From a virus (Duplodnaviria; Caudoviricetes): a stretch of DNA of 34,548 nucleotides. Every line of letters begins with the position of its first letter. Position 1 is the stretch's first letter. Position numbers and translations under genes: made by a program. This document shows positions 555-23,525 of this stretch, in pieces. The stretch covers positions 1 through 34,548 of the IMG/VR virus record IMGVR_UViG_3300020044_004189; one strand, given 5' to 3'. The notes beneath the pieces are model-generated. The model saw only the letters and a list, made by a program, of their open reading frames with translations, had not been told where the DNA came from and searched no databases.

Positions 555-605
555 ATAGGTGCCCTTATAGGTGAAATGCCCAGAATGGTCTGGTGGCCTG
601 TGTAC

Positions 606-634
606 AGTGTATCGCTGTTGGTCAAGATGCACAA
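606..634 (-). promoter_or_regulatory. Candidate sigma70-type internal promoter for scaffold/coat (TTGTGC-17-TACACT)
   Basis: Spacer of 17 bp in an intergenic position, overlapped by the direct repeat TTGACCAAC (617-625, 637-645). Confidence 0.4.
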
Positions 635-641
635 CAGTTGG

Positions 642-2042
642 TCAATCTGGCTGCGGTTCTTCCTCTCGCTGTATGTTGCGTAAAGCCGACAAGCCGATAG
701 TTGCGCCTGCTGCTCCATATAACGGAGACCGCGCATTGATGATGCTGTCAACCAGCACCTCTCTCGGCGTTTTGTTTGTCACCCTTGCAGTTCGCTCTAT
801 CGCTTCGTTGATGTGCTGGATCATTGGCTTGCCTTGGGTTCCTTTAGCCCCAGCCCATGCAACGTCTTGCACGTTACCTGGCAACACGCCAAACTCTCGC
901 CCGACATCGCCAAGAACGCGCTCCATGACGCCGTATGACGCGCCAGGCGGCGAGGTCAGCCCGCTTTCATACAATTGGCTCATCTGCTCGTCAATGGTGG
1001 CTCTGTTCATGTCTCCGAGGAAATTGGCAGAAAAGTTGAATCGCTTGGGCTGTCCAGACGCAGTCAACGGGGTCTCGTTCATGATTATTTTGTCTGCCAT
1101 AGCCATGTTGCCAGCCAAATACCTGCCGCCGATTGGGTGCGGGTAGTTGGTTGACCCAGTTGGCAAGGATAGTCCTTGTGCTTTTCTATTGTTAACATAC
1201 GCAGACATCAACAGGTTAGCAGTAGGATCAGCGCCTCCGGTTGTTGCCGCCATCGCATCAGCAAACCGTTCCTTGAACATTTTTGGCCCTTCGACAGGCC
1301 CAAGCTCCCTGATAAACTCATCTTGAAGCTGCCCCATCGCATACCAATTCTGGCTAGTCGGAGAGAGTCCACGCTCGTATGCTTGTCGGATGTTGTCCCG
1401 TATTTGCGGAGTGTCAAACCTCTCTGCATACTGATCAATTGTTGCTTGTTTTGCAGGCATAGCATCGACAAGTGTATTACCTTGCAAATTGTACAGCTCT
1501 GGGTTGGCAAAATACCGATCCTCTACAGCAAAGTATGGATCATACTTTCCAGCGATTATGTCTCGCTGCGCCGTGTTTCGCGCTCTTTGCAACGCCAGTT
1601 CCTCAGTTGTTAATTCTTTCTGGAGGAACCCCTCCGGTTTTTTCGGATTACTAAAGTTAAGGCTGCCTGGCCCAGTTTGTGGGTAATTACGGGATATTGC
1701 GTCAACATCGTAGCCAACATCTACAACCCCCTCTAATGGGCTGGCCGCACCTCTTGCAGCCCTTACAGCAGCCACCCCAGGCACCAATGGCAGCATCCCC
1801 AGAGCAGACATGGCGTAGTTGCCATACGTCCTTTCTTCAGGGTAAGCAGCGTACATCGCAGCGTCAGCAGCTAATCCAGTGATGTCACCAGCAATCGGCA
1901 CAGCAGACATCGGCAGCGAGGCAGCGCCCAGAATATCGGCAGTAGTCTGGCCTCTAGTTCTAGGCACACGCGCAGGTGCTGGCCCTTGGCCTATGCCCAT
2001 GAGGTAGGCTTGGTCTAATGCTCTGAGTGCTGACTGTGCCAT
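642..2042 (-). CDS. Putative virion-associated effector: pre-toxin TG-like N-terminal hairpin plus HhH-glycosylase-like C-terminal domain (466 aa)
   Basis: Start moved to ATG 2042 (SD GGGGAGG). N-terminal SAVPIAGDITGLAADAAM...ALGMLPLVPG; C-terminal NWY...AATT...N...KRFNFSANFLGDMNRATIDEQM...YGVMERVL...FGVLPGNVQDVAW. Confidence 0.6.
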   Translation of the reverse strand: MAQSALRALDQAYLMGIGQGPAPARVPRTRGQTTADILGAASLPMSAVPIAGDITGLAADAAMYAAYPEERTYGNYAMSALGMLPLVPGVAAVRAARGAASPLEGVVDVGYDVDAISRNYPQTGPGSLNFSNPKKPEGFLQKELTTEELALQRARNTAQRDIIAGKYDPYFAVEDRYFANPELYNLQGNTLVDAMPAKQATIDQYAERFDTPQIRDNIRQAYERGLSPTSQNWYAMGQLQDEFIRELGPVEGPKMFKERFADAMAATTGGADPTANLLMSAYVNNRKAQGLSLPTGSTNYPHPIGGRYLAGNMAMADKIIMNETPLTASGQPKRFNFSANFLGDMNRATIDEQMSQLYESGLTSPPGASYGVMERVLGDVGREFGVLPGNVQDVAWAGAKGTQGKPMIQHINEAIERTARVTNKTPREVLVDSIINARSPLYGAAGATIGLSALRNIQREEEPQPD

Positions 2043-2044
2043 GA

Positions 2045-2434
2045 TCAATCCTCCCCGTATTCTTCTTCTTCTTCTTTTGGCTCCCAAGCCTGACACACTC
2101 GCAGGTTATGGCAGACGAACTCGAACTTCTTGCAGTAGCCTCGACCGCCGCCATCAGCGTCATAGTCATCCTCTGGCACTACTTCTATGTATTCCAGTTT
2201 TTCTGGTGAGTTGTTGAAGTATTCGCAGTTGCCACACATCTGCCTGCGAGCCTCTACTGGCTTTACGCTCCAAGCCCTAGCCATCATGCGATAGTAGTCA
2301 GTGTTGTCGCTGGTGGTCTCTTCAGGGCCGAACTTCCAGTTCTCGATGACGTTGGCCCGATTCTCTCGGTTGATCTTCGCAGTGAATGGCTCTTCCTGCT
2401 GGATGATAATGGTCATGCCTTCGAGTGGATTCAT
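2045..2434 (-). CDS. Small acidic Cys-rich protein with HiPIP-like [4Fe-4S] motif
   Basis: CGNCEYF...GYCKKFEFVC...RVCQAW. ATGA overlap with the portal stop codon; acidic C-terminus. Confidence 0.6.
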   Translation of the reverse strand: MNPLEGMTIIIQQEEPFTAKINRENRANVIENWKFGPEETTSDNTDYYRMMARAWSVKPVEARRQMCGNCEYFNNSPEKLEYIEVVPEDDYDADGGGRGYCKKFEFVCHNLRVCQAWEPKEEEEEYGED

Positions 2435-4566
2435 ATCTGGCCCCTGAATGGATTCAATGCGCTGACGATCTTCAGTTGGTTATCAATCTGCTTGCCTTGA
2501 GTATCAACGGTATCCTTCTCGATACTGGCTCCAGCCTGCTGAGCTTTAATCTGGGTGTTCATGCGCTGAGTCTGGGCGTTGAACACATCCAGTTGCTGAG
2601 TGGCTTGATCTGCCTGCATCTGCATCTGCATCTTTTGCGCTTCCAACTGAATCTTGGCGGTCTCAAGCTGAAGCCTTTGAACCTCAACCTGCGCTCTCAT
2701 CTGCTCTGCTTGAGCCTTAGCCATCTCGGCCTGCGCCAGTACCATCGCTGGGTCTTGCTGCTGCTCTTGACCCTGTGCGCTCTGGGCCATCTGAGCTTTC
2801 TCTTCCTCGGTCAGTTGGGTCTGCGGGATAAGACCCTGAGCCATCATCTGAAGACGCTTGCGCTCACCGATCTGACTGGCTGCGCTGGTAGGGATTGCAT
2901 TCAGGAGTATGTCGCCAGCCATCCCAATGATTGACGGATCGACTTTAGCTATCTCGATGATGGTCTCGATGGTCTCCTGCTGACGATTGCGGAACGATGG
3001 CCCTGCTCGGCAAGAAACGCTGTACTGGCCCTTGGTCAGGTCGTTCAGGGTGACAATCTCGCCCGTCTGCTGATCAATGATCGGCTCGTTCAATACCTGC
3101 ATCTCGCTGCTGCCATCCTCGTACAGCAGTCTGACTGTGCGCTGGGCATCATAGACCTTGGGAATAGCCTTGACCAAGATGTCTCCAGTGGCAGCAATAG
3201 CCGCTTCCAGTGCTCGGAAATACTTGATCGTGCCGTTGTCGCCTTTGGATTGAAGGCTCTCGATAGCCACGCCTGACTGAAGCCCTGGGTTGTCTCCCAT
3301 TGAGGCAGCGAACATTCCCGCAGTCTGGCCTATGATCTGGCGCATTGACTCGGAGATTGTGCGAAGCCCTGGGTTAACCTGCGCTCCACCCTGCTGCATG
3401 GGAGCGCCTGGCATCTCAGGGTCTACGTTGTAGAACTGAACTGGGTCGGAGTTAGTGTTGAGCGTAGCCAGTGCGTCCTCATGCCCTGCTGCTTGCGTCA
3501 GCGTCATCCAGTACTTGGCTCTCGGAGCCAGAGCACCTTCCTCGATCTCCCTAGAAAGCGAGTAATTGAGCACACGCTGCGGGTCAAGCAGCTTCTCGAC
3601 GACACCCCAATAGATTGTCTTGTTCTCGACGATCTTGAAGTTGCCGTACAGTGGGACGATAGGAATGCGGTCGAAGATGGTCTCTTCCTCATCCTCCAGC
3701 CAGTTGGTCTGGTCAAAGAAGCGTGAATAGACCTTGGTCTTGTAAGCCTTGCGAGTCCTGACCTCCTCGATGCCGAGCAGTGTCAGCTCGTCCTTTACCT
3801 TCTTGAAGTCATCGTCAATAGAGTAGACAGCGCCATTAGACATGAGCACCAGCTCGCAGGCTTCTTGACTGACGTAGAACAACTGACCTACAACGATCAC
3901 CTGCCCCTTGTCATAGTAGGCGTCACCCTCTCTGTCGATTGAGACAGACGCTTGAGAGCCTTCAGGGTATCGCTTGACGTACTCCTGAACTGACATTGCG
4001 TGAAGCAGGAAGGCGTACTGGGCGTCCGACTTGTCTTGCAGATAAGAAGCAGGGTCGAACCAGACTCTATCAATAAAGTTAGCAACAGGCTCAATCACCA
4101 GGTCTTGGTCAAATGACTGCGGATCAGAATACTTGTGGCTGATCATCCAGCCATCGTAGCCAGTGGTGACCATTCCTCGACCGGCATTGACGTAGATATC
4201 TTTAGCTCGACTGATTGACTCGATGTTACGCACCAGCCCATCGATCACCATAGCAGTCTCTTTAGACGCTGGGCCTGACATTGGAGATACCTTGATGTCG
4301 AAGTCGGCAAGCTCGATGGAAGCAGTCACTTGATCGATGATGGGATTGACCTGGTCGAAGGTGTACCGAGGCTTGCCGACATTGTTCGTCCACCAATAGG
4401 GTTCCCACTGGCCATCTCGCTTATCGACAAAGAGGTGCGCCTCGCGGGCCTTCTCTCGGTTGTCGTGATCAGCCTCTTGAGCTGAAGACATAAGATTGAG
4501 CACTGACTGAAGGCTGTCGAAGTCAATTGTGTAATCGCTGTTGTCGCCTGATCCGTATTGAGCCAT
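2431..4566 (-). CDS. Portal protein, P22 gp1-like
   Basis: About 711 aa, directly after terL (TGATG overlap). Motifs DGQW, RYTFDQVNPIIDQV, IPIVPLYG, DPQRVLNY, SGVAI, GPSFRNRQQE and a Gln-rich C-terminal barrel helix. Confidence 0.93.
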   Translation of the reverse strand: MAQYGSGDNSDYTIDFDSLQSVLNLMSSAQEADHDNREKAREAHLFVDKRDGQWEPYWWTNNVGKPRYTFDQVNPIIDQVTASIELADFDIKVSPMSGPASKETAMVIDGLVRNIESISRAKDIYVNAGRGMVTTGYDGWMISHKYSDPQSFDQDLVIEPVANFIDRVWFDPASYLQDKSDAQYAFLLHAMSVQEYVKRYPEGSQASVSIDREGDAYYDKGQVIVVGQLFYVSQEACELVLMSNGAVYSIDDDFKKVKDELTLLGIEEVRTRKAYKTKVYSRFFDQTNWLEDEEETIFDRIPIVPLYGNFKIVENKTIYWGVVEKLLDPQRVLNYSLSREIEEGALAPRAKYWMTLTQAAGHEDALATLNTNSDPVQFYNVDPEMPGAPMQQGGAQVNPGLRTISESMRQIIGQTAGMFAASMGDNPGLQSGVAIESLQSKGDNGTIKYFRALEAAIAATGDILVKAIPKVYDAQRTVRLLYEDGSSEMQVLNEPIIDQQTGEIVTLNDLTKGQYSVSCRAGPSFRNRQQETIETIIEIAKVDPSIIGMAGDILLNAIPTSAASQIGERKRLQMMAQGLIPQTQLTEEEKAQMAQSAQGQEQQQDPAMVLAQAEMAKAQAEQMRAQVEVQRLQLETAKIQLEAQKMQMQMQADQATQQLDVFNAQTQRMNTQIKAQQAGASIEKDTVDTQGKQIDNQLKIVSALNPFRGQI

Positions 4567-6086
4567 CAATTCCACCCCTTAAATTTAATCTGCTTGACCT
4601 GCACTTTCTCGCCCTTCTTGCTTTGAGCGAACTGCCTGAAAGCGTCTGCGCCCTCTGAGTGTTCGTCGTGCAATGGCATATCCATGAACCTGCCGTTCGT
4701 TGCGCTCCACCGCTTTCGGTATCTATCGAGGTGGATGATACCGGCCTTGCAGGCTGTCTCGTCGAACCAGACCGTAGCGAACGAATCGCGGGTCACTTGT
4801 ATTCCGTGATTGATCTCATCGACCCTCGGCACCAGCTCGATGTTCTTCAGCCCCAGCCTGTCTAGCATTTGCTGAGGTGAGACGTTGGCAAGCTGCCCTT
4901 GTCGCACATGACCGGCATCGTGCGGAAGGTAGTGTATACCCCAGACGTAGCCCAGCTTCTGCATCTCGCTGACATAGTGCGCGTAAGGCTCGCCCCAGCC
5001 TTCGATGAATCCAATGAAGTTATCGTTCTGCCCGATCTTCTGGTGCAGCCAGATAGCGGTGCCATCAGAGGAGCCAATGTCCCAATAGGTATTCACCGGA
5101 TAGCCTGGCCGGTGCGGTAGTGTGGTTATTCTGCCTTGCTTTCGAACGGCTGTCATCTGCGCTGAGTAGTAGCAGCCCTCGGTTGACTGCTGGAACGCCT
5201 CGTCTGGAGTGCTCGGATACTCCTGCCACATCCTTTCCTCTTGCCCGCTGAAGTCTGAATCGCGGGTTGAGCACCACCAGGCGCGTTGCTCTTGGCTGAG
5301 TGTACAGCCCTGATCCTGCTCAATCTTGTCAAAGTATTCGTTATCAGTTGCGGTAATCACCACGCCAGCGCAGGGCATCTTGTATCGAGGCTCGACCCAC
5401 CACGGGAAGAAGTTAAACTTAAACTCCTTGTGCGTGAGCGTGTTTCCGCTTTGTTCTTTCTGCATAGCCAGGCGGCACATATCATAGAACGCGCCCTCCT
5501 GACCCTCTGCGGTTGACTCAATGAAGATGACGCCGTTGCTGGTCACGGACGGGATCGAGCCAGTGATGACCTCGTTCGCTCGGTCGGGGAACTTAGCGCA
5601 TATCTTGCCGAATTCGGAAACGTGCAGGTACTGCAACGTCCCGCCCCGTGCGCTGGTTGCCACCGAGATCGCGCTGTTGTTGTGCGCGAACAGCAGCTCG
5701 GTCTGACTATCGCGGGCCAAGGGCATGACCTGCCGCAGCGTTGCAGGGAGGTTGTTATAGGCAAACTGCACCTTGTCGCGGAATATAGTCTTTGCCACGC
5801 CCTCGGTCTGGGCAACGATTGAGGCTCGGACGTTATCGCGGAATAACACGCAGTCGAGGAAGTAGATAGCAATCAGGGTAGTGAAGCCGAGCTGTCGAGC
5901 CTTGAGGATGATATTACGGTGGTGCATATTCTCCAGCAGTTTGATCTGGGAGGCATTGGGAAGGAATGGCACTGCCAGGTCTTCTTCGCCATCGTCACCC
6001 TTAATCATAATCTTGTAGAGACATCCGCTGGTGAGCCTCCACATCGGGTCTTGCAGCATAGCCTTGAGATCGTCAACAGTGGTCAT
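4566..6086 (-). CDS. terL: Terminase large subunit
   Basis: Walker A-like LKARQLGFTT, Walker B LHVSE, coupling motif ESTAEG, and RNase H-like nuclease WDIG...D...HSEGADAFR. Confidence 0.95.
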   Translation of the reverse strand: MTTVDDLKAMLQDPMWRLTSGCLYKIMIKGDDGEEDLAVPFLPNASQIKLLENMHHRNIILKARQLGFTTLIAIYFLDCVLFRDNVRASIVAQTEGVAKTIFRDKVQFAYNNLPATLRQVMPLARDSQTELLFAHNNSAISVATSARGGTLQYLHVSEFGKICAKFPDRANEVITGSIPSVTSNGVIFIESTAEGQEGAFYDMCRLAMQKEQSGNTLTHKEFKFNFFPWWVEPRYKMPCAGVVITATDNEYFDKIEQDQGCTLSQEQRAWWCSTRDSDFSGQEERMWQEYPSTPDEAFQQSTEGCYYSAQMTAVRKQGRITTLPHRPGYPVNTYWDIGSSDGTAIWLHQKIGQNDNFIGFIEGWGEPYAHYVSEMQKLGYVWGIHYLPHDAGHVRQGQLANVSPQQMLDRLGLKNIELVPRVDEINHGIQVTRDSFATVWFDETACKAGIIHLDRYRKRWSATNGRFMDMPLHDEHSEGADAFRQFAQSKKGEKVQVKQIKFKGWN

Positions 6087-17042: not shown

Positions 17043-17262
17043 ACTGGAGCAATGGATAAACAACAAGGCTTGCCCGCTGTACTTCCACGACAAAGAAAAT
17101 GATGAAGGATACGATGGCCGCGCAATTATGGTGAGCGATATGGAAAAGCTGTTCGATGGTAAGGTGCTGGTGCCGGTGGAGCTGCTGAAAGAGATGCGGG
17201 TCTACCTGAGCAGTAACCGCCTATCAAACCAACTGCGGGCCATCATAGGGGACAAACCATGA
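17032..17262 (+). CDS. Hypothetical protein
   Basis: SD GGAGGT; coupled to the next gene. Confidence 0.7.
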   Translation: MNAELEQWINNKACPLYFHDKENDEGYDGRAIMVSDMEKLFDGKVLVPVELLKEMRVYLSSNRLSNQLRAIIGDKP

Positions 17263-17651
17263 TCTCCGCCCTGTTCTGCGTAGCCAGTGCGATATACTTT
17301 GAAGCCCGTGGCGAGCCTATAGAAGGCCAGGCAGCGGTCGCGTGGGTGATCTACCACCGCACAGCAGCACCGGGCTACCCGGACACGGCCTGCGAGGTAG
17401 TCACCGAGGACGAGCATCGAAGGGGCGAGTGTCAGTTTTCGTATATGTGTGACGGGCTGCGCGAGGACATCCACGATGATTGGGCATACGCCAAAGCTCT
17501 GCTGGTCACAATGTTAACGGCAGGGAACTTCCTTCCTGATCCCACGGGCGGGGCAACACACTACCACGCGACCAGAGTCCGTCCTTGGTGGGCAGCGGAA
17601 TTGGAGCGAACAACAAGAATCGACAACCATATTTTCTACCGGGGGCGATAA
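17259..17651 (+). CDS. SleB/Hydrolase_2-family cell wall hydrolase
   Basis: CVASAIYFEARGEP..GQ.AVA.VI..R, CQFSY, DPTGGATHYHA..V.PWW, IDNHIFY. Confidence 0.92.
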   Translation: MISALFCVASAIYFEARGEPIEGQAAVAWVIYHRTAAPGYPDTACEVVTEDEHRRGECQFSYMCDGLREDIHDDWAYAKALLVTMLTAGNFLPDPTGGATHYHATRVRPWWAAELERTTRIDNHIFYRGR

Positions 17652-18346: not shown

Positions 18347-18371
18347 AAGCCCCTTCATTGGGGCTTTTTTT
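18347..18371 (+). terminator. Rho-independent terminator at the convergence of the early and late operons
   Basis: AAGCCCC-TTCATT-GGGGCTT followed by a T-run. Confidence 0.85.
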
Positions 18372-18849
18372 ACGACAAGAATAAAGCCCTTTCAGCAGAT
18401 CGTCGGCGGGTCAGTCCAGCTAAAACTTTCCCGCCAGCTTTATTCCACTTCAAGAACTCGTCTGCTGCTGCATCAATCTCGCCGCGAGAGTACTTCATTC
18501 TTAGCGTGCTGGCTTGAAGGTTGCCTAGTCCCACGTTGAAACTAAAGCTGACAATTGCGTCAAACTGAGACTGGCTATCAACAGCAGCAGGACATAGTCG
18601 TAAAACCCCAGCCTCAAATTTACGTAAATCCGCCGCAAGTAGCGCATCAATTTCGTCAGCATCCCACACCCGATTATGTTCTGATTTAAGTGCATAAGAG
18701 GCTCTTTCAGGCGTTTTGAGACGCGCTTGGTCAGGGTACAGTACATGACCATACCCTATTGTCCAAAGCCCAGCAGGGCAGCGATAAGGGCTGTTGTGGC
18801 AACCCTCAAAGCTCTTGATTAATTGGATGCCAGCCTCAGATATGCTCAT
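18370..18849 (-). CDS. Endolysin, GH24 phage lysozyme
   Basis: LIKSFEG...YRCPAGLWTIGYGH, QFDAIVSFSFNVG, GLTRRRSAERALF. Confidence 0.95.
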   Translation of the reverse strand: MSISEAGIQLIKSFEGCHNSPYRCPAGLWTIGYGHVLYPDQARLKTPERASYALKSEHNRVWDADEIDALLAADLRKFEAGVLRLCPAAVDSQSQFDAIVSFSFNVGLGNLQASTLRMKYSRGEIDAAADEFLKWNKAGGKVLAGLTRRRSAERALFLS

Positions 18850-20296: not shown

Positions 20297-23022
20297 GAAA
20301 TCCCCCAAATAGTCATTGTGCCTGCTCCGCCTGCTCCGCCTGCGCCACTATTAAATCCATCTCTTGAGGCCCCGCCACCACCACCGCCACCGCCCCCTGT
20401 ACCGCCAGCGCCACCAGCAGAAGCCGCAGCAACTGCGCTTGACCCCCCACCACCGCCACCCGCCCCAGAGTATGGGTACACTCTAGCAGCACCAGCCGTT
20501 CCAGCCGAAGGAACAATGCCTGACGCGCCAGCAGCACCGCCAGTTCCGTTTGCGTATGAGTTTGCACCACCCCCAGCGGCGGGTTGCGGCGTAGCATCAA
20601 GGTCTGATACTGGGCCACCGCCGCCACCGCCGCCTCCGCCAAAAATTGACCCTCCCCCTTCTCTGCCCCCAGCACCATTTTGCGGCGAAGCCCCGCCAGA
20701 ACCGCCTCCGTGTTCGGCAAAATATCCGGCACTATTGTTGAAACTTCCTGCGCCGCCACCGCCAGTGTTTCTGCCGTTTGCACCGGCAGCGCCAAAAAAC
20801 GTCGATACCGGATTACCCCCAGCGGCTTCCGCACCAGAACCCGCAGTGGGTGTACCGCCCGCGGACGCTGACCCGCCGCCACCGCCTCCATTTGCTATGG
20901 TTGAGTTTTCACCGCCCGAACCGCCGCCGCCACCGTATGCGAACAGGTAAGTTCCGAAAGAGGTATTTCCGCCCACCGATCCAGAATTACCTGTCACACC
21001 GTTGGTTGTTTTAGCGGCACCTCCAGCCCCTCCTGCCGCAACCGTTGCAGTGACAGACGTTCCAGCCGCAATCCCAGGTATTACAACAGTAGTTCTTGCG
21101 CCACCGCCGCCCCCGCCGCCGCCACTAGATGCAGTAAGCGTTGGCTGACGAGTCCCTGACCCGCCACCGCCACCGCCAGCAATACACTCTACTGCGATAG
21201 CCGCGTATCCGGGAGGAGTTACAAAGGTAAATGAGCTTGGCGCGTTTCGGAAAAACGATGCCAACAGTACAGAGGTGAAAGCCGTTCCAGTACACTGCAC
21301 CAAACGAGCCTCGCCCGGGTACATGATGTAGGTTGTAAGCCCATCAATCAGTTCAGAAGAATTCGGGTCAAGCGTAATATCACCAGTACCGCTGTTTCTC
21401 AGGTACACAAACCAGCCACTGCCAAGTGTCGCCGCTGCTGTAAAGGTTTGGCTAAACGTGCCGCTGGTAATGTCAATCAACGTACCCTGATCTGCTACAC
21501 CCAGAATCGTGTTAGATGTACGAGCAGAGCGAATGACAGTCGGAACGGATGAACCAACTACCGTAGCAACACCACTAACTTTCGTGTAGTTGACACAGTA
21601 AACAGTCGTCCCGTCACTCTCGTAAATCGCTCGATCACCAACCGCTGTAGTGATGTTCGCAGCACCCGGAAGGTTATTAGTTGTCGCGTTATGCGTCAGC
21701 GTCAAGATGCCATCAAAGATCACCGTTCTAGGCCCACGGGTCAGGGTGACAGCAGTGATCGCTGTAGTGCCTGTGATGTGGACTCGGTTGCCTGTTGCGG
21801 TGTCCAGATTGATCGTTGCTGCTGAGGCAATAGAAGCGCCTGTATTTATATCTAGAACGCCAGTGATGCCGTTGATGGTCGGCGCAGTCAATGTCTTGTT
21901 GGTCAGCGTCTCTGTGCCGGTCAGAGTTGCATACGCCCCTGCCGGTAGATAACTAGCCAGCCATGCAGCGCCAGAGTAAACGCGCATCTCGTTTGAGACC
22001 GTGTTGAAATACAAAGCACCCGTTAACAGTGGATTGCCGTCATTGTCCAAGGTTGGATCAGAAGACTTTGGCCCTAGATATCTATCGTCAAAGCTGTCGT
22101 ATGAAGCAGCAGCACTTGCCGCGCTAGATGATGCCGCGCTTGCCGAGGTGCTCGCGTTACCAGCCTGGGTCGTTGCAATACCCGCTTGGGTTGTTGCAAT
22201 ACCGGCCTGCGTTGTCGCTGTACCTGCGCTTGTGGACGCTAAACCAGCTTGTGTAGTCGCAGTTGATGCAGAGCCAGCAGCAGCAGTCGCAGAGGCAGCA
22301 GCAGCCGTTGCAGAAGCCGCAGCAGCAACACTCGTTCCCACCCAGTCACTAGGAGAGGATGCAGGAGTGTCGCCAACAGTTGTTCTTAACGCTGTGTAGA
22401 ATATCCCATCAGGGCCAACTACGTTCTGACCGACTGTGTAAGTAATAGTCGATACGTAAGCCAGGCTAATCAGCCGCCAGTAAGCAGCCTCAGTAGTCGG
22501 GTTTTTATTCAGGTTTGAGTTCTGCAATGACTGATAAAGCAGATTGCTAACAGTAACAACAGCGCCTTCGGTGTACGTTATGCCTGAATTCCAATCGACC
22601 GAGTACAGCAGAACCCAGTAACCAGAAGTAGACGCTGGATTGTTGTTGACGTTATTGGCTGCTAGGGAGACGTAGAACTCTCCGTCACTGCCCTGCACTA
22701 CGTCATTCGCACCGTAAATCTTGGACGATACCCACGCATCACCAAAGGCACTGGTTGTCTGGCCTACTGGATCGCGCACAAGTATCTGAACATTCGCACT
22801 GGTGGTCAGAATAGCCTTAGCCACGCCATCGAAGAAGATGTTTGGCTGGCGACCAGCAGCAGTCAGGATCACCGGATTGGTGTTCGGTATCGTGAGGTTA
22901 ACGTCTGAGTAAGTGGTCTTGGGCGTAGTGGTGCCGGTCTCGTAGAAGTAGATTTTGCCAGAGATCAGAGGATCGCCTGCGTCATCGAAGTATTGTGAAT
23001 CTAGATCGCCGTAACGCGCTAT
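20293..23022 (-). CDS. Tail fibre/tailspike (about 909 aa), with an apparent non-canonical ATA start
   Basis: The frame is open 50 codons upstream of the called GTG: (I/M)ARYGDLDSQYFDDAGDPLISGKIYFYETGTTTPKTTY...NTNPVIL (head-binding-like N-terminus). This is followed by three W...Y..G..V....Y....N..P....W repeats, Ala/Thr heptads, FDDRYLG and a Gly-rich C-terminus. Confidence 0.85.
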   Translation of the reverse strand: MARYGDLDSQYFDDAGDPLISGKIYFYETGTTTPKTTYSDVNLTIPNTNPVILTAAGRQPNIFFDGVAKAILTTSANVQILVRDPVGQTTSAFGDAWVSSKIYGANDVVQGSDGEFYVSLAANNVNNNPASTSGYWVLLYSVDWNSGITYTEGAVVTVSNLLYQSLQNSNLNKNPTTEAAYWRLISLAYVSTITYTVGQNVVGPDGIFYTALRTTVGDTPASSPSDWVGTSVAAAASATAAAASATAAAGSASTATTQAGLASTSAGTATTQAGIATTQAGIATTQAGNASTSASAASSSAASAAASYDSFDDRYLGPKSSDPTLDNDGNPLLTGALYFNTVSNEMRVYSGAAWLASYLPAGAYATLTGTETLTNKTLTAPTINGITGVLDINTGASIASAATINLDTATGNRVHITGTTAITAVTLTRGPRTVIFDGILTLTHNATTNNLPGAANITTAVGDRAIYESDGTTVYCVNYTKVSGVATVVGSSVPTVIRSARTSNTILGVADQGTLIDITSGTFSQTFTAAATLGSGWFVYLRNSGTGDITLDPNSSELIDGLTTYIMYPGEARLVQCTGTAFTSVLLASFFRNAPSSFTFVTPPGYAAIAVECIAGGGGGGSGTRQPTLTASSGGGGGGGGARTTVVIPGIAAGTSVTATVAAGGAGGAAKTTNGVTGNSGSVGGNTSFGTYLFAYGGGGGSGGENSTIANGGGGGGSASAGGTPTAGSGAEAAGGNPVSTFFGAAGANGRNTGGGGAGSFNNSAGYFAEHGGGSGGASPQNGAGGREGGGSIFGGGGGGGGGPVSDLDATPQPAAGGGANSYANGTGGAAGASGIVPSAGTAGAARVYPYSGAGGGGGGSSAVAAASAGGAGGTGGGGGGGGGASRDGFNSGAGGAGGAGTMTIWGIS
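22160..22330 (-). repeat. Degenerate 21-bp (7-aa) tandem repeats TTQAG(I/L/N)A and AAASATA in the tail fibre
   Basis: For example ATTQAGIATTQAGIATTQAGNA. Confidence 0.7.
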
Positions 23023-23525
23023 GGTGCTACCCTCCCGTGATTCGCATGGAATCCCATTTTGTTTTCAGCAGATATTCTGGCGCAGCAAGCGTCAAAGAAA
23101 TCAAAGAAACTTCCAATCTCAAGATGTACATCAAGCGCCTTTGCTCGGACTCGCCACTTACTATTGTGCCGATTCCAAACAACACCCATAATTCCTGTCT
23201 TGCTATTTGAGCAAGCCTTTCTGTTTTTCATGTTTTCACGGTGCGATACACTTCTTAAATTATCCCACCGATTATCAGAGGAGTCCCCATTTATATGATC
23301 GACTTCTTCAGGCCATTCTCCATTCATCATTAAAAAGATGACTCTGTGCGCCTTATAAAGTTTCCTATCTATCCTGACGCTGACCCTGTTATCTGCCTTT
23401 GACACATAGCCAGCTATAGAGCCTTTTTTGGCAACATTGGAATTTGTTTTCTTCCACACCAACAATCCATTTTCAGGAGTATATTCTAAAAGCTCTTTTG
23501 CTCTTTCCTGAGTTACAAGCGCCAT
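23019..23525 (-). CDS. HNH homing endonuclease (HNH_3 + AP2-like)
   Basis: YKAHRVIF...EVDHINGDSSDNRWDNLR.V...EN; C-terminal GIMGVVW...KWRVR...GF..NHG; AT-rich. Confidence 0.92.
   Translation of the reverse strand: MALVTQERAKELLEYTPENGLLVWKKTNSNVAKKGSIAGYVSKADNRVSVRIDRKLYKAHRVIFLMMNGEWPEEVDHINGDSSDNRWDNLRSVSHRENMKNRKACSNSKTGIMGVVWNRHNSKWRVRAKALDVHLEIGSFFDFFDACCARISAENKMGFHANHGRVAP

Follow-up and report, generated by a model that had tools for sequence, protein, structure and literature searches.

The window analysed here is the whole stretch of 34,548 nucleotides (nt) of a Caudoviricetes virus (IMG/VR record IMGVR_UViG_3300020044_004189), and this text deals with a 466-amino-acid (aa) gene in it, the slot gene, located between the portal and scaffold genes (its product is P0001; P- and L-numbers denote compared proteins and compared loci, respectively). 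This gene is a cassette whose middle part, the cargo, is exchanged, stacked and lost among relatives within a conserved frame. The cargo in the window is a predicted helix-hairpin-helix (HhH) glycosylase/apurinic-apyrimidinic lyase, and we lean, with modest confidence, towards the reading that the protein is loaded into the head, injected, and excises modified guanine from non-self DNA.

A cassette gene with exchangeable cargoes

The slot genes share one grammar: a leader with a SALR motif, a hydrophobic hairpin, an SPLEG linker, the cargo, and a tail in which SALR appears again. Searching with the whole protein identified 569 homologs; residues ~105-445 were constant and the upstream part was variable among the 120 homologs listed. 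With residues 28-100 as the query, 68 proteins were found, almost all of them with 60-97% identity in the aligned part; only three of the 68 have the window's cargo. The remaining 65 carry ART-PolyVal (39, counted as matches at E ≤ 0.01, not all above the family cut-off), GNAT (1), a methyltransferase (1) or no match (24). SAL[RAK] is found within the first 30 aa in 42 of these 65 proteins (some are N-truncated), and SALR within the last 30 aa in 51.

A search anchored on the portal gave 77 loci, 38 of them spanning portal to scaffold. Among the latter, the window's cargo occurs in one, the slot is empty in five, and two slot genes are present in six; none of the ten loci whose portal is at least 93% identical has this cargo. 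When 43 slot proteins were hand-picked without duplicates (four of the loci were selected for carrying the window's cargo, plus the window itself), they fell into 26 cargo clusters, with the hairpin in 39 of the 43. The named cargoes among 42 scanned proteins were ART-PolyVal, DUF7178, GNAT, LPD23, SAM (S-adenosylmethionine) lyase and ParB-like; PBECR5 was found as a cargo in the wider protein set. A hairpin profile matched 1,159 representatives at E ≤ 0.001.

The DNA identity to relatives (blastn) breaks at about 2022, 1729 and 716: identity to L085, L089 and L091 stops at 1729, identity to L001 starts at 1742, and contig pieces from independent assemblies (runs X3 and X4) terminate at 1720. 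The SPLEG linker is repeated between stacked cargoes (P0004, P0006/L001, L105, L129). The preliminary description had proposed an exchangeable C-terminal enzyme. An enzyme is indeed exchanged behind a conserved N-terminus; however, because a separate generic tail follows, the module is central, framed at both ends and able to stack.

Further arrangements were seen. In L082, L130, L142, L144 and L003, an extra module of ~140 aa with SALR repeats on both sides precedes the hairpin, so stacking also occurs on the N-terminal side. L157 (7180-10479) encodes, at the head-gene position, a 1,099-aa slot protein with a SAM lyase domain (PF23780, above cut-off), an enzyme of the anti-restriction type. 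In another phage group (L158 3177-7265; P0351, P0367, P0388), the window's cargo lies in long proteins interspersed with short A.GG repeats, which may be an analogue of SALR. In L075 (4546-5397), which has a different head module, a PAPS-reductase-like gene lies directly upstream of the glycosylase cargo gene.

The N-terminal segment had earlier been likened to the pre-toxin TG (PT-TG) segment of polymorphic toxins. This was not borne out: PF14449 had no match at E ≤ 10 in 28 hairpin variants, none among 123 hairpin-profile matches (123 of the 133 new proteins were scanned), and none in the phage's own genome. The only tie is an ESM Atlas search with the hairpin, in which unnamed viral clusters came top and a PT-TG cluster stood twelfth (score 0.87), which is no more than a lead; PT-TG membership is thus unsupported. 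P49 and P85 do not vary across the 28 variants, and the hydrophobicity of this region is moderate (Kyte-Doolittle maximum 1.45). Among cultured phages, the hairpin search gave matches only at E ≥ 4. The reported lack of a MuF domain held: PF04233 had no match in the genome, and no MuF-type Pfam model matched P0001 at E ≤ 1 (the MuF3/MuF4 models of the MuF-toxin paper lie outside this test). The hairpin may nonetheless act in the manner of a pre-toxin or of a MuF carrier.

An alternative of small likelihood is that the head operon is used for expression only, and that the protein stays unpackaged as a late cytoplasmic effector acting on co-infecting DNA during assembly. The lack of a match to any known head-loading domain and the dispensable slot would agree with this, but all cargoes share conserved terminal motifs without a catalytic look, and longer proteins exist in which the glycosylase module is joined to murein hydrolases.

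The glycosylase-like cargo and its convergent partner gene

In structure comparison of the predicted model, residues 212-407 matched HhH glycosylases, the best matches being 8-oxoguanine (8-oxoG) glycosylases, and the model has the two-domain helical fold of the HhH-GPD superfamily. The HhH-glycosylase resemblance proposed earlier is thus retained for the predicted structure, and the sequence motifs quoted for it were found in the protein. The cargo module also includes an N-terminal extension of ~100 residues, barely covered by the fold search. All 211 sequences compared, the most distant at ~35% identity, have K333 and D351, and by inspection the two residues stand in ungapped register with K131 and D149 of Ogg2, the Lys and Asp of the bifunctional type. 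Lys333-Asp351 is the predicted catalytic pair, and Gln392-x3-Trp396 would form a guanine-reading pocket. The aspartate of the TID motif, singled out earlier, belongs to this feature, but the key feature is the pair. Purifying selection acts on the slot gene: compared with L002, 331 codons show 142 synonymous and 21 non-synonymous differences.

It is very improbable that the fold is used without catalysis, as a shield or decoy that binds DNA, either covering it on entry or sitting in a host glycosylase or defence site. The weak sequence link to true glycosylases would allow it, and the extension and many invariant Gly and Pro residues suggest additional binding surfaces; the invariance of Lys and Asp at the catalytic positions argues against it.

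No significant family for P0001 was found in Pfam, PHROGs or NCBIfam; Ogg-HhH (PF22175) had no match at E ≤ 1, and the PDB sequence search gave nothing for P0001 and one chance row for alignment A1. The ESM Atlas clusters nearest to the cargo were DUF7178 (0.94), which suggests kinship. True DUF7178 members fill the same slot in L082, L119 and L124.

Many relatives carry, on the opposite strand and tail-to-tail with the slot gene, a partner gene of 63-84 aa (~67) from one unnamed family (no significant match in Pfam, PHROGs or NCBIfam). It occurs in 51 of the 76 cargo-bearing loci having at least 300 nt downstream (25 of 41 rows after dereplication). Among the 77 portal-anchored loci it is present only in L106, the one with the window's cargo, and a search with the partner found the enzyme in 11 of 11 loci (9 of those contigs were already known). 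The partner co-travels with the enzyme across head types and is under purifying selection (pooled pN/pS 0.20, 9 pairs); upstream of it lie an extended -10-like box in 23 of 29 cases and a Shine-Dalgarno sequence in 19 of 29 (loose pattern). Enzyme and partner distances are correlated (Spearman 0.88), which is not counted as co-evolution because linkage alone predicts it. Complex prediction for the L043 enzyme (alignment A4) and partner (A5) gave a median of 0.04 relative to a mark of 0.32, which speaks neither for nor against binding.

The window genome contains no partner homolog anywhere. Together with L001, L002, L004 and L158 (the starred branch), the window forms a partner-less sub-lineage that lies within the partner-bearing alleles; the tree requires three or more changes in partner presence. 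No partner was detected elsewhere in the partner-less genomes (25 records; positive controls 3/3 detected), nor in five enzyme-bearing records of 97-100% completeness, which retain the catalytic residues. A correlation between the partner's occurrence and a 7-deazaguanine pathway of the phage itself was considered and rejected, since none of 27 records, whether partner-bearing or partner-less, has QueC or FolE.

Two further types of cargo are accompanied by different small convergent genes of their own; no such gene follows ART alleles that have the generic tail. Downstream of an unnamed cargo of 372 aa lies a cargo-specific convergent gene of 61 aa (L086 7347-7537, L093 8979-9170, L126 8970-9160, L134 after 8934), which starts about 6 nt past a TGCTATAAT box (leaderless-like). 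Further cargo-specific convergent small acidic genes occur in L108, L109, L122 and L148 (after the slot gene) and in L149, L150 and L157. By eye, L093, L108, L150, L081 and part of L157 have unnamed cargoes that appear mutually related; these have no Pfam, PHROG or NCBIfam match.

The partner bears on a second alternative, in which the enzyme excises ordinary guanine of host DNA, thereby shutting off the host or killing non-permissive cells, and is countered by an immunity protein encoded by the convergent early gene. Its specificity for the glycosylase cargo, its co-travel and the separate small genes of other cargoes fit such a toxin-antidote pair, as do the small downstream open reading frames (ORFs) that mark 89.4% of MuF toxins (PMC5576092). 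We nevertheless judge the pair improbable, since the partner is absent from the window's whole genome and from the five near-complete records with intact catalytic residues. Moreover, MuF immunity genes are described as immediately downstream and in temperate phages, and no integrase was found among the 37 window proteins scanned.

A third alternative, which we consider rather unlikely, is that the packaged glycosylase cleans the phage's own DNA on entry, removing either oxidised guanine (8-oxoG, which virions would acquire in sunlit water) or a guanine adduct imposed by a defence system. The top structural matches point this way, as do the sequencing runs containing the window stretch (mostly freshwater, two marine) and the partner-less alleles, which are under purifying selection and present in natural populations. 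In Ogg2, however, 8-oxoG is recognized at its N7-H by the C-terminal lysine carboxylate (PMC3397491); the last residue of Ogg2 aligns to residue 407 of the slot protein, and since the chain continues beyond it, a sensor of this type cannot be present. Nor would one expect a repair enzyme to be interchangeable with ARTs, GNATs and SAM lyase, or to be accompanied by a dedicated partner.

Proposed mechanism and target

In the proposed mechanism, the slot protein would be made late together with the head proteins, and the frame (leader-hairpin-linker plus tail) would act as a loading and ejection tag replacing MuF. The protein would be ejected into the cell along with the phage DNA, and base excision at a guanine derivative, followed by beta-elimination, would nick the target. 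The partner, with its own sigma70-like promoter, would most likely restrain the enzyme; the window's sub-lineage would do without it.

Provided that the substrate is a guanine, 7-deazaguanine-type modified DNA of a rival phage or host is a possible, tentatively preferred target; removal of a lesion or adduct from the phage's own DNA is doubtful, and unmodified host guanine is unlikely. Non-self modified guanine is favoured because conflict enzymes fill the slot and the pocket is of the guanine type without Ogg2's sensor; and since these phages lack QueC/FolE, the antidote can be lost. The conflict-effector context suggested earlier agrees with the drawing of cargoes from polyvalent-protein domains and with the murein hydrolase fusions. 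The broadest version, a MuF-free weapon system of aquatic podophages in which the SALR-hairpin frame loads any cargo, the virion-delivered glycosylase destroys 7-deazaguanine DNA of rivals or hosts and antisense early inhibitors are the antidote, is on the whole improbable.

Several results weigh against the reading of a head-loaded enzyme acting on non-self modified guanine. As for the fold, the alignment with Ogg2 by hhalign was not significant (E 0.11, probability 0.5%), agreeing on D351 but placing K333 three residues off the register used; structural scores were middling for a helical fold, with no Foldseek match at E ≤ 0.001, and DUF7178 (PF23802) matched residues 308-399 weakly (E 0.05; 13.9 vs the cut-off of 27 bits, with a best score of 21.9 bits in a relative). 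Dag1 is linked to the cargo by a pattern of residues and not by an alignment. As for delivery, the predicted model has a pLDDT below 50 over residues 11-102, so that the hairpin structure is not confidently predicted, and the slot is dispensable (5 of 38 loci empty). Moreover, we infer head packaging from position and fusions because no clear homolog of the slot protein was found among cultured phages (best tblastn E 0.05 in 50,697 records). Finally, the partner fits neither target fully: if foreign modified DNA alone is attacked, no partner should be required, but one is retained by 25 of 41 dereplicated alleles, whereas attack on self DNA leaves its repeated loss (at least three changes) with an intact active site unexplained. 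Its retention in most lineages argues for some self-damage.

The cassette grammar describes putative head-packaged effectors of a non-MuF kind among phages with near-identical heads, and offers a direct route to enumerating the first-injected proteins of abundant uncultured aquatic phages. The frame is a candidate portable capsid-loading tag; the putative head-packaged arsenal gains an HhH glycosylase with a predicted guanine-type pocket, and DUF7178-like proteins gain a testable function. Proteins of the unannotated ~67-aa family may act as natural inhibitors of an HhH glycosylase. If the proposal is true, the virion-delivered glycosylase would be a phage-side mirror of the bacterial Dag defences, and the partner a new inhibitor family.

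Gene neighbourhood and known systems

The record is a complete phage genome (100% completeness) with 121-bp terminal repeats. The minus strand carries, in this order, TerS, TerL, portal, a 129-aa gene, the slot gene, scaffold, coat (PF11651), and head-completion and ejection genes (Table 1). The P22-type module and the 466-aa ORF of the preliminary description were thus confirmed, but the 129-aa gene separates the portal from the slot gene.

Table 1. Positions of the slot gene, its parts and its neighbours in the window
Feature	Position	Strand	Remark
Slot gene, 466 aa, glycosylase-like allele (P0001)	642-2042	-	ATG at 2042
N-terminal leader with SALR motif	2019-2042	-	common to most slot alleles; blastn breakpoints near 2022-2026
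Hydrophobic Gly/Ala-rich hairpin, residues ~37-98	1749-1934	-	several allelic types; PT-TG-like in pattern only
SPLEG linker, residues 101-105	1728-1742	-	recurrent junction for cargo exchange and stacking
Cargo module, residues ~106-445	708-1727	-	confidently folded in predicted model
HhH-glycosylase-like domain, residues 212-407	822-1409	-	predicted fold, with K333 (1044-1046), F337, G343, D351 (990-992), Y370, E374, Q392, W396
Generic C-terminal tail, second SALR motif	642-716	-	common to ART-bearing alleles; breakpoint 716-719
Gap of 87 nt before scaffold ATG (554)	555-641	.	site of the convergent partner gene in relatives; partner absent
Conserved 129-aa Cys-containing gene	2045-2434	-	between portal and slot gene; not cargo-specific
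P22-like portal (PF16510)	2431-4575	-	upstream anchor of slot; Pfam match
Head scaffolding protein (phrog_8865), 5′ part	1-554 (ATG 554)	-	downstream anchor; rest at the other end of the window

The 129-aa gene has a CxxC...C...CxxW pattern, which we take to resemble HiPIP-type Fe-S motifs, and a weak DUF7140 match (E 0.006). It is fixed between portal and slot where portal identity exceeds ~77%, and is missing in L103, L148 and more distant phages. It was rejected as an immunity gene because it is retained regardless of the cargo and in 4 of the 5 empty slots. A plus-strand ORF of 191 aa (571-1146) was treated as an antisense shadow, a promoter excess not being found.

Family scans of 37 of the 77 listed window ORFs turned up neither an integrase nor a DNA-modification enzyme. 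Murein hydrolases of the SleB and lysozyme types lie on opposite strands (17259-17651, plus; 18370-18849, minus), and a free-standing HNH gene (23019-23525, minus) separates the last ejection gene from that of the tail fibre. The closest cultured portal is that of Pseudoalteromonas phage H6/1 (43% identity), which has four small reverse-strand genes (4789-5478 of L171, KX257490.2) and no slot gene in its portal-scaffold interval; the cultured relative 234P9 has no gene there. The glycosylase module is also found on three contigs of metagenome-assembled genomes, which were not used as host evidence.

Head-packaged mosaic effectors (PMC5512222, PMC9503650) and post-portal MuF toxins with small downstream ORFs (PMC5576092, PMC3482391) are already described. 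In the text available, 'glycosylase' occurs 0 times in the main text of PMC5512222 (its supplement is outside this count), and 'PT-TG' does not occur in PMC3482391. The literature searches found no paper dealing with DUF7178, with a glycosylase as cargo of such proteins or with the frame, although the supplementary domain tables of Iyer et al. could list the module unnamed.

The slot family resembles the phage polyvalent proteins (Iyer et al. 2017, PMC5512222) in its cargo pool (ART-PolyVal, GNAT, ParB-like, LPD23, PBECR5), mosaic architectures, genes beside portal or terminase, and inferred head packaging, and the glycosylase module occurs in long multidomain proteins with those domains. The mosaic of named domains in a head-gene context is seen in the slot family and the longer fusions; the window allele has a single cargo. 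Unlike those proteins, the slot family has a small fixed frame with visible linker and tail, zero to three cargoes among phages with near-identical portals, and cargo-specific convergent partners.

With MuF polymorphic toxins (Jamet et al. 2017, PMC5576092) it shares the post-portal locus (with one 129-aa gene between), a conserved N-terminal part, a variable enzymatic cargo and, in many alleles, a small cognate ORF downstream; this ORF is absent in the window, and in the 51 of 76 relatives having it, it is convergent. It differs in having no MuF1/MuF2 match, a central cargo with a conserved tail, a partner encoded on the opposite strand behind a promoter-like box of its own and, in the window phage, a podovirus-type head with no integrase seen. 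As in pre-toxin TG (PF14449), a short hydrophobic P..G hairpin precedes a variable enzyme, but the slot hairpins have no match to that hidden Markov model.

The cargo resembles the 8-oxoG glycosylases Ogg2, AGOG and OGG1 (PMC3397491) in the predicted fold, the Lys-Asp pair 18 residues apart, the Gln/Asp-x3-aromatic pocket and, as in AGOG, Phe at K+4; it differs in its low identity (9-17%), the lack of the C-terminal lysine sensor, extra N- and C-terminal helices and the phage conflict context. Finally, the anti-phage glycosylase Dag1 (bioRxiv 10.1101/2025.10.29.685425) has the HhH fold, the K / D / [DQ]xxxW constellation and a conflict role on modified guanine, which we propose for the slot enzyme; unlike the latter, Dag1 is host-encoded in integrons, with a K-D spacing of 14 vs 18.
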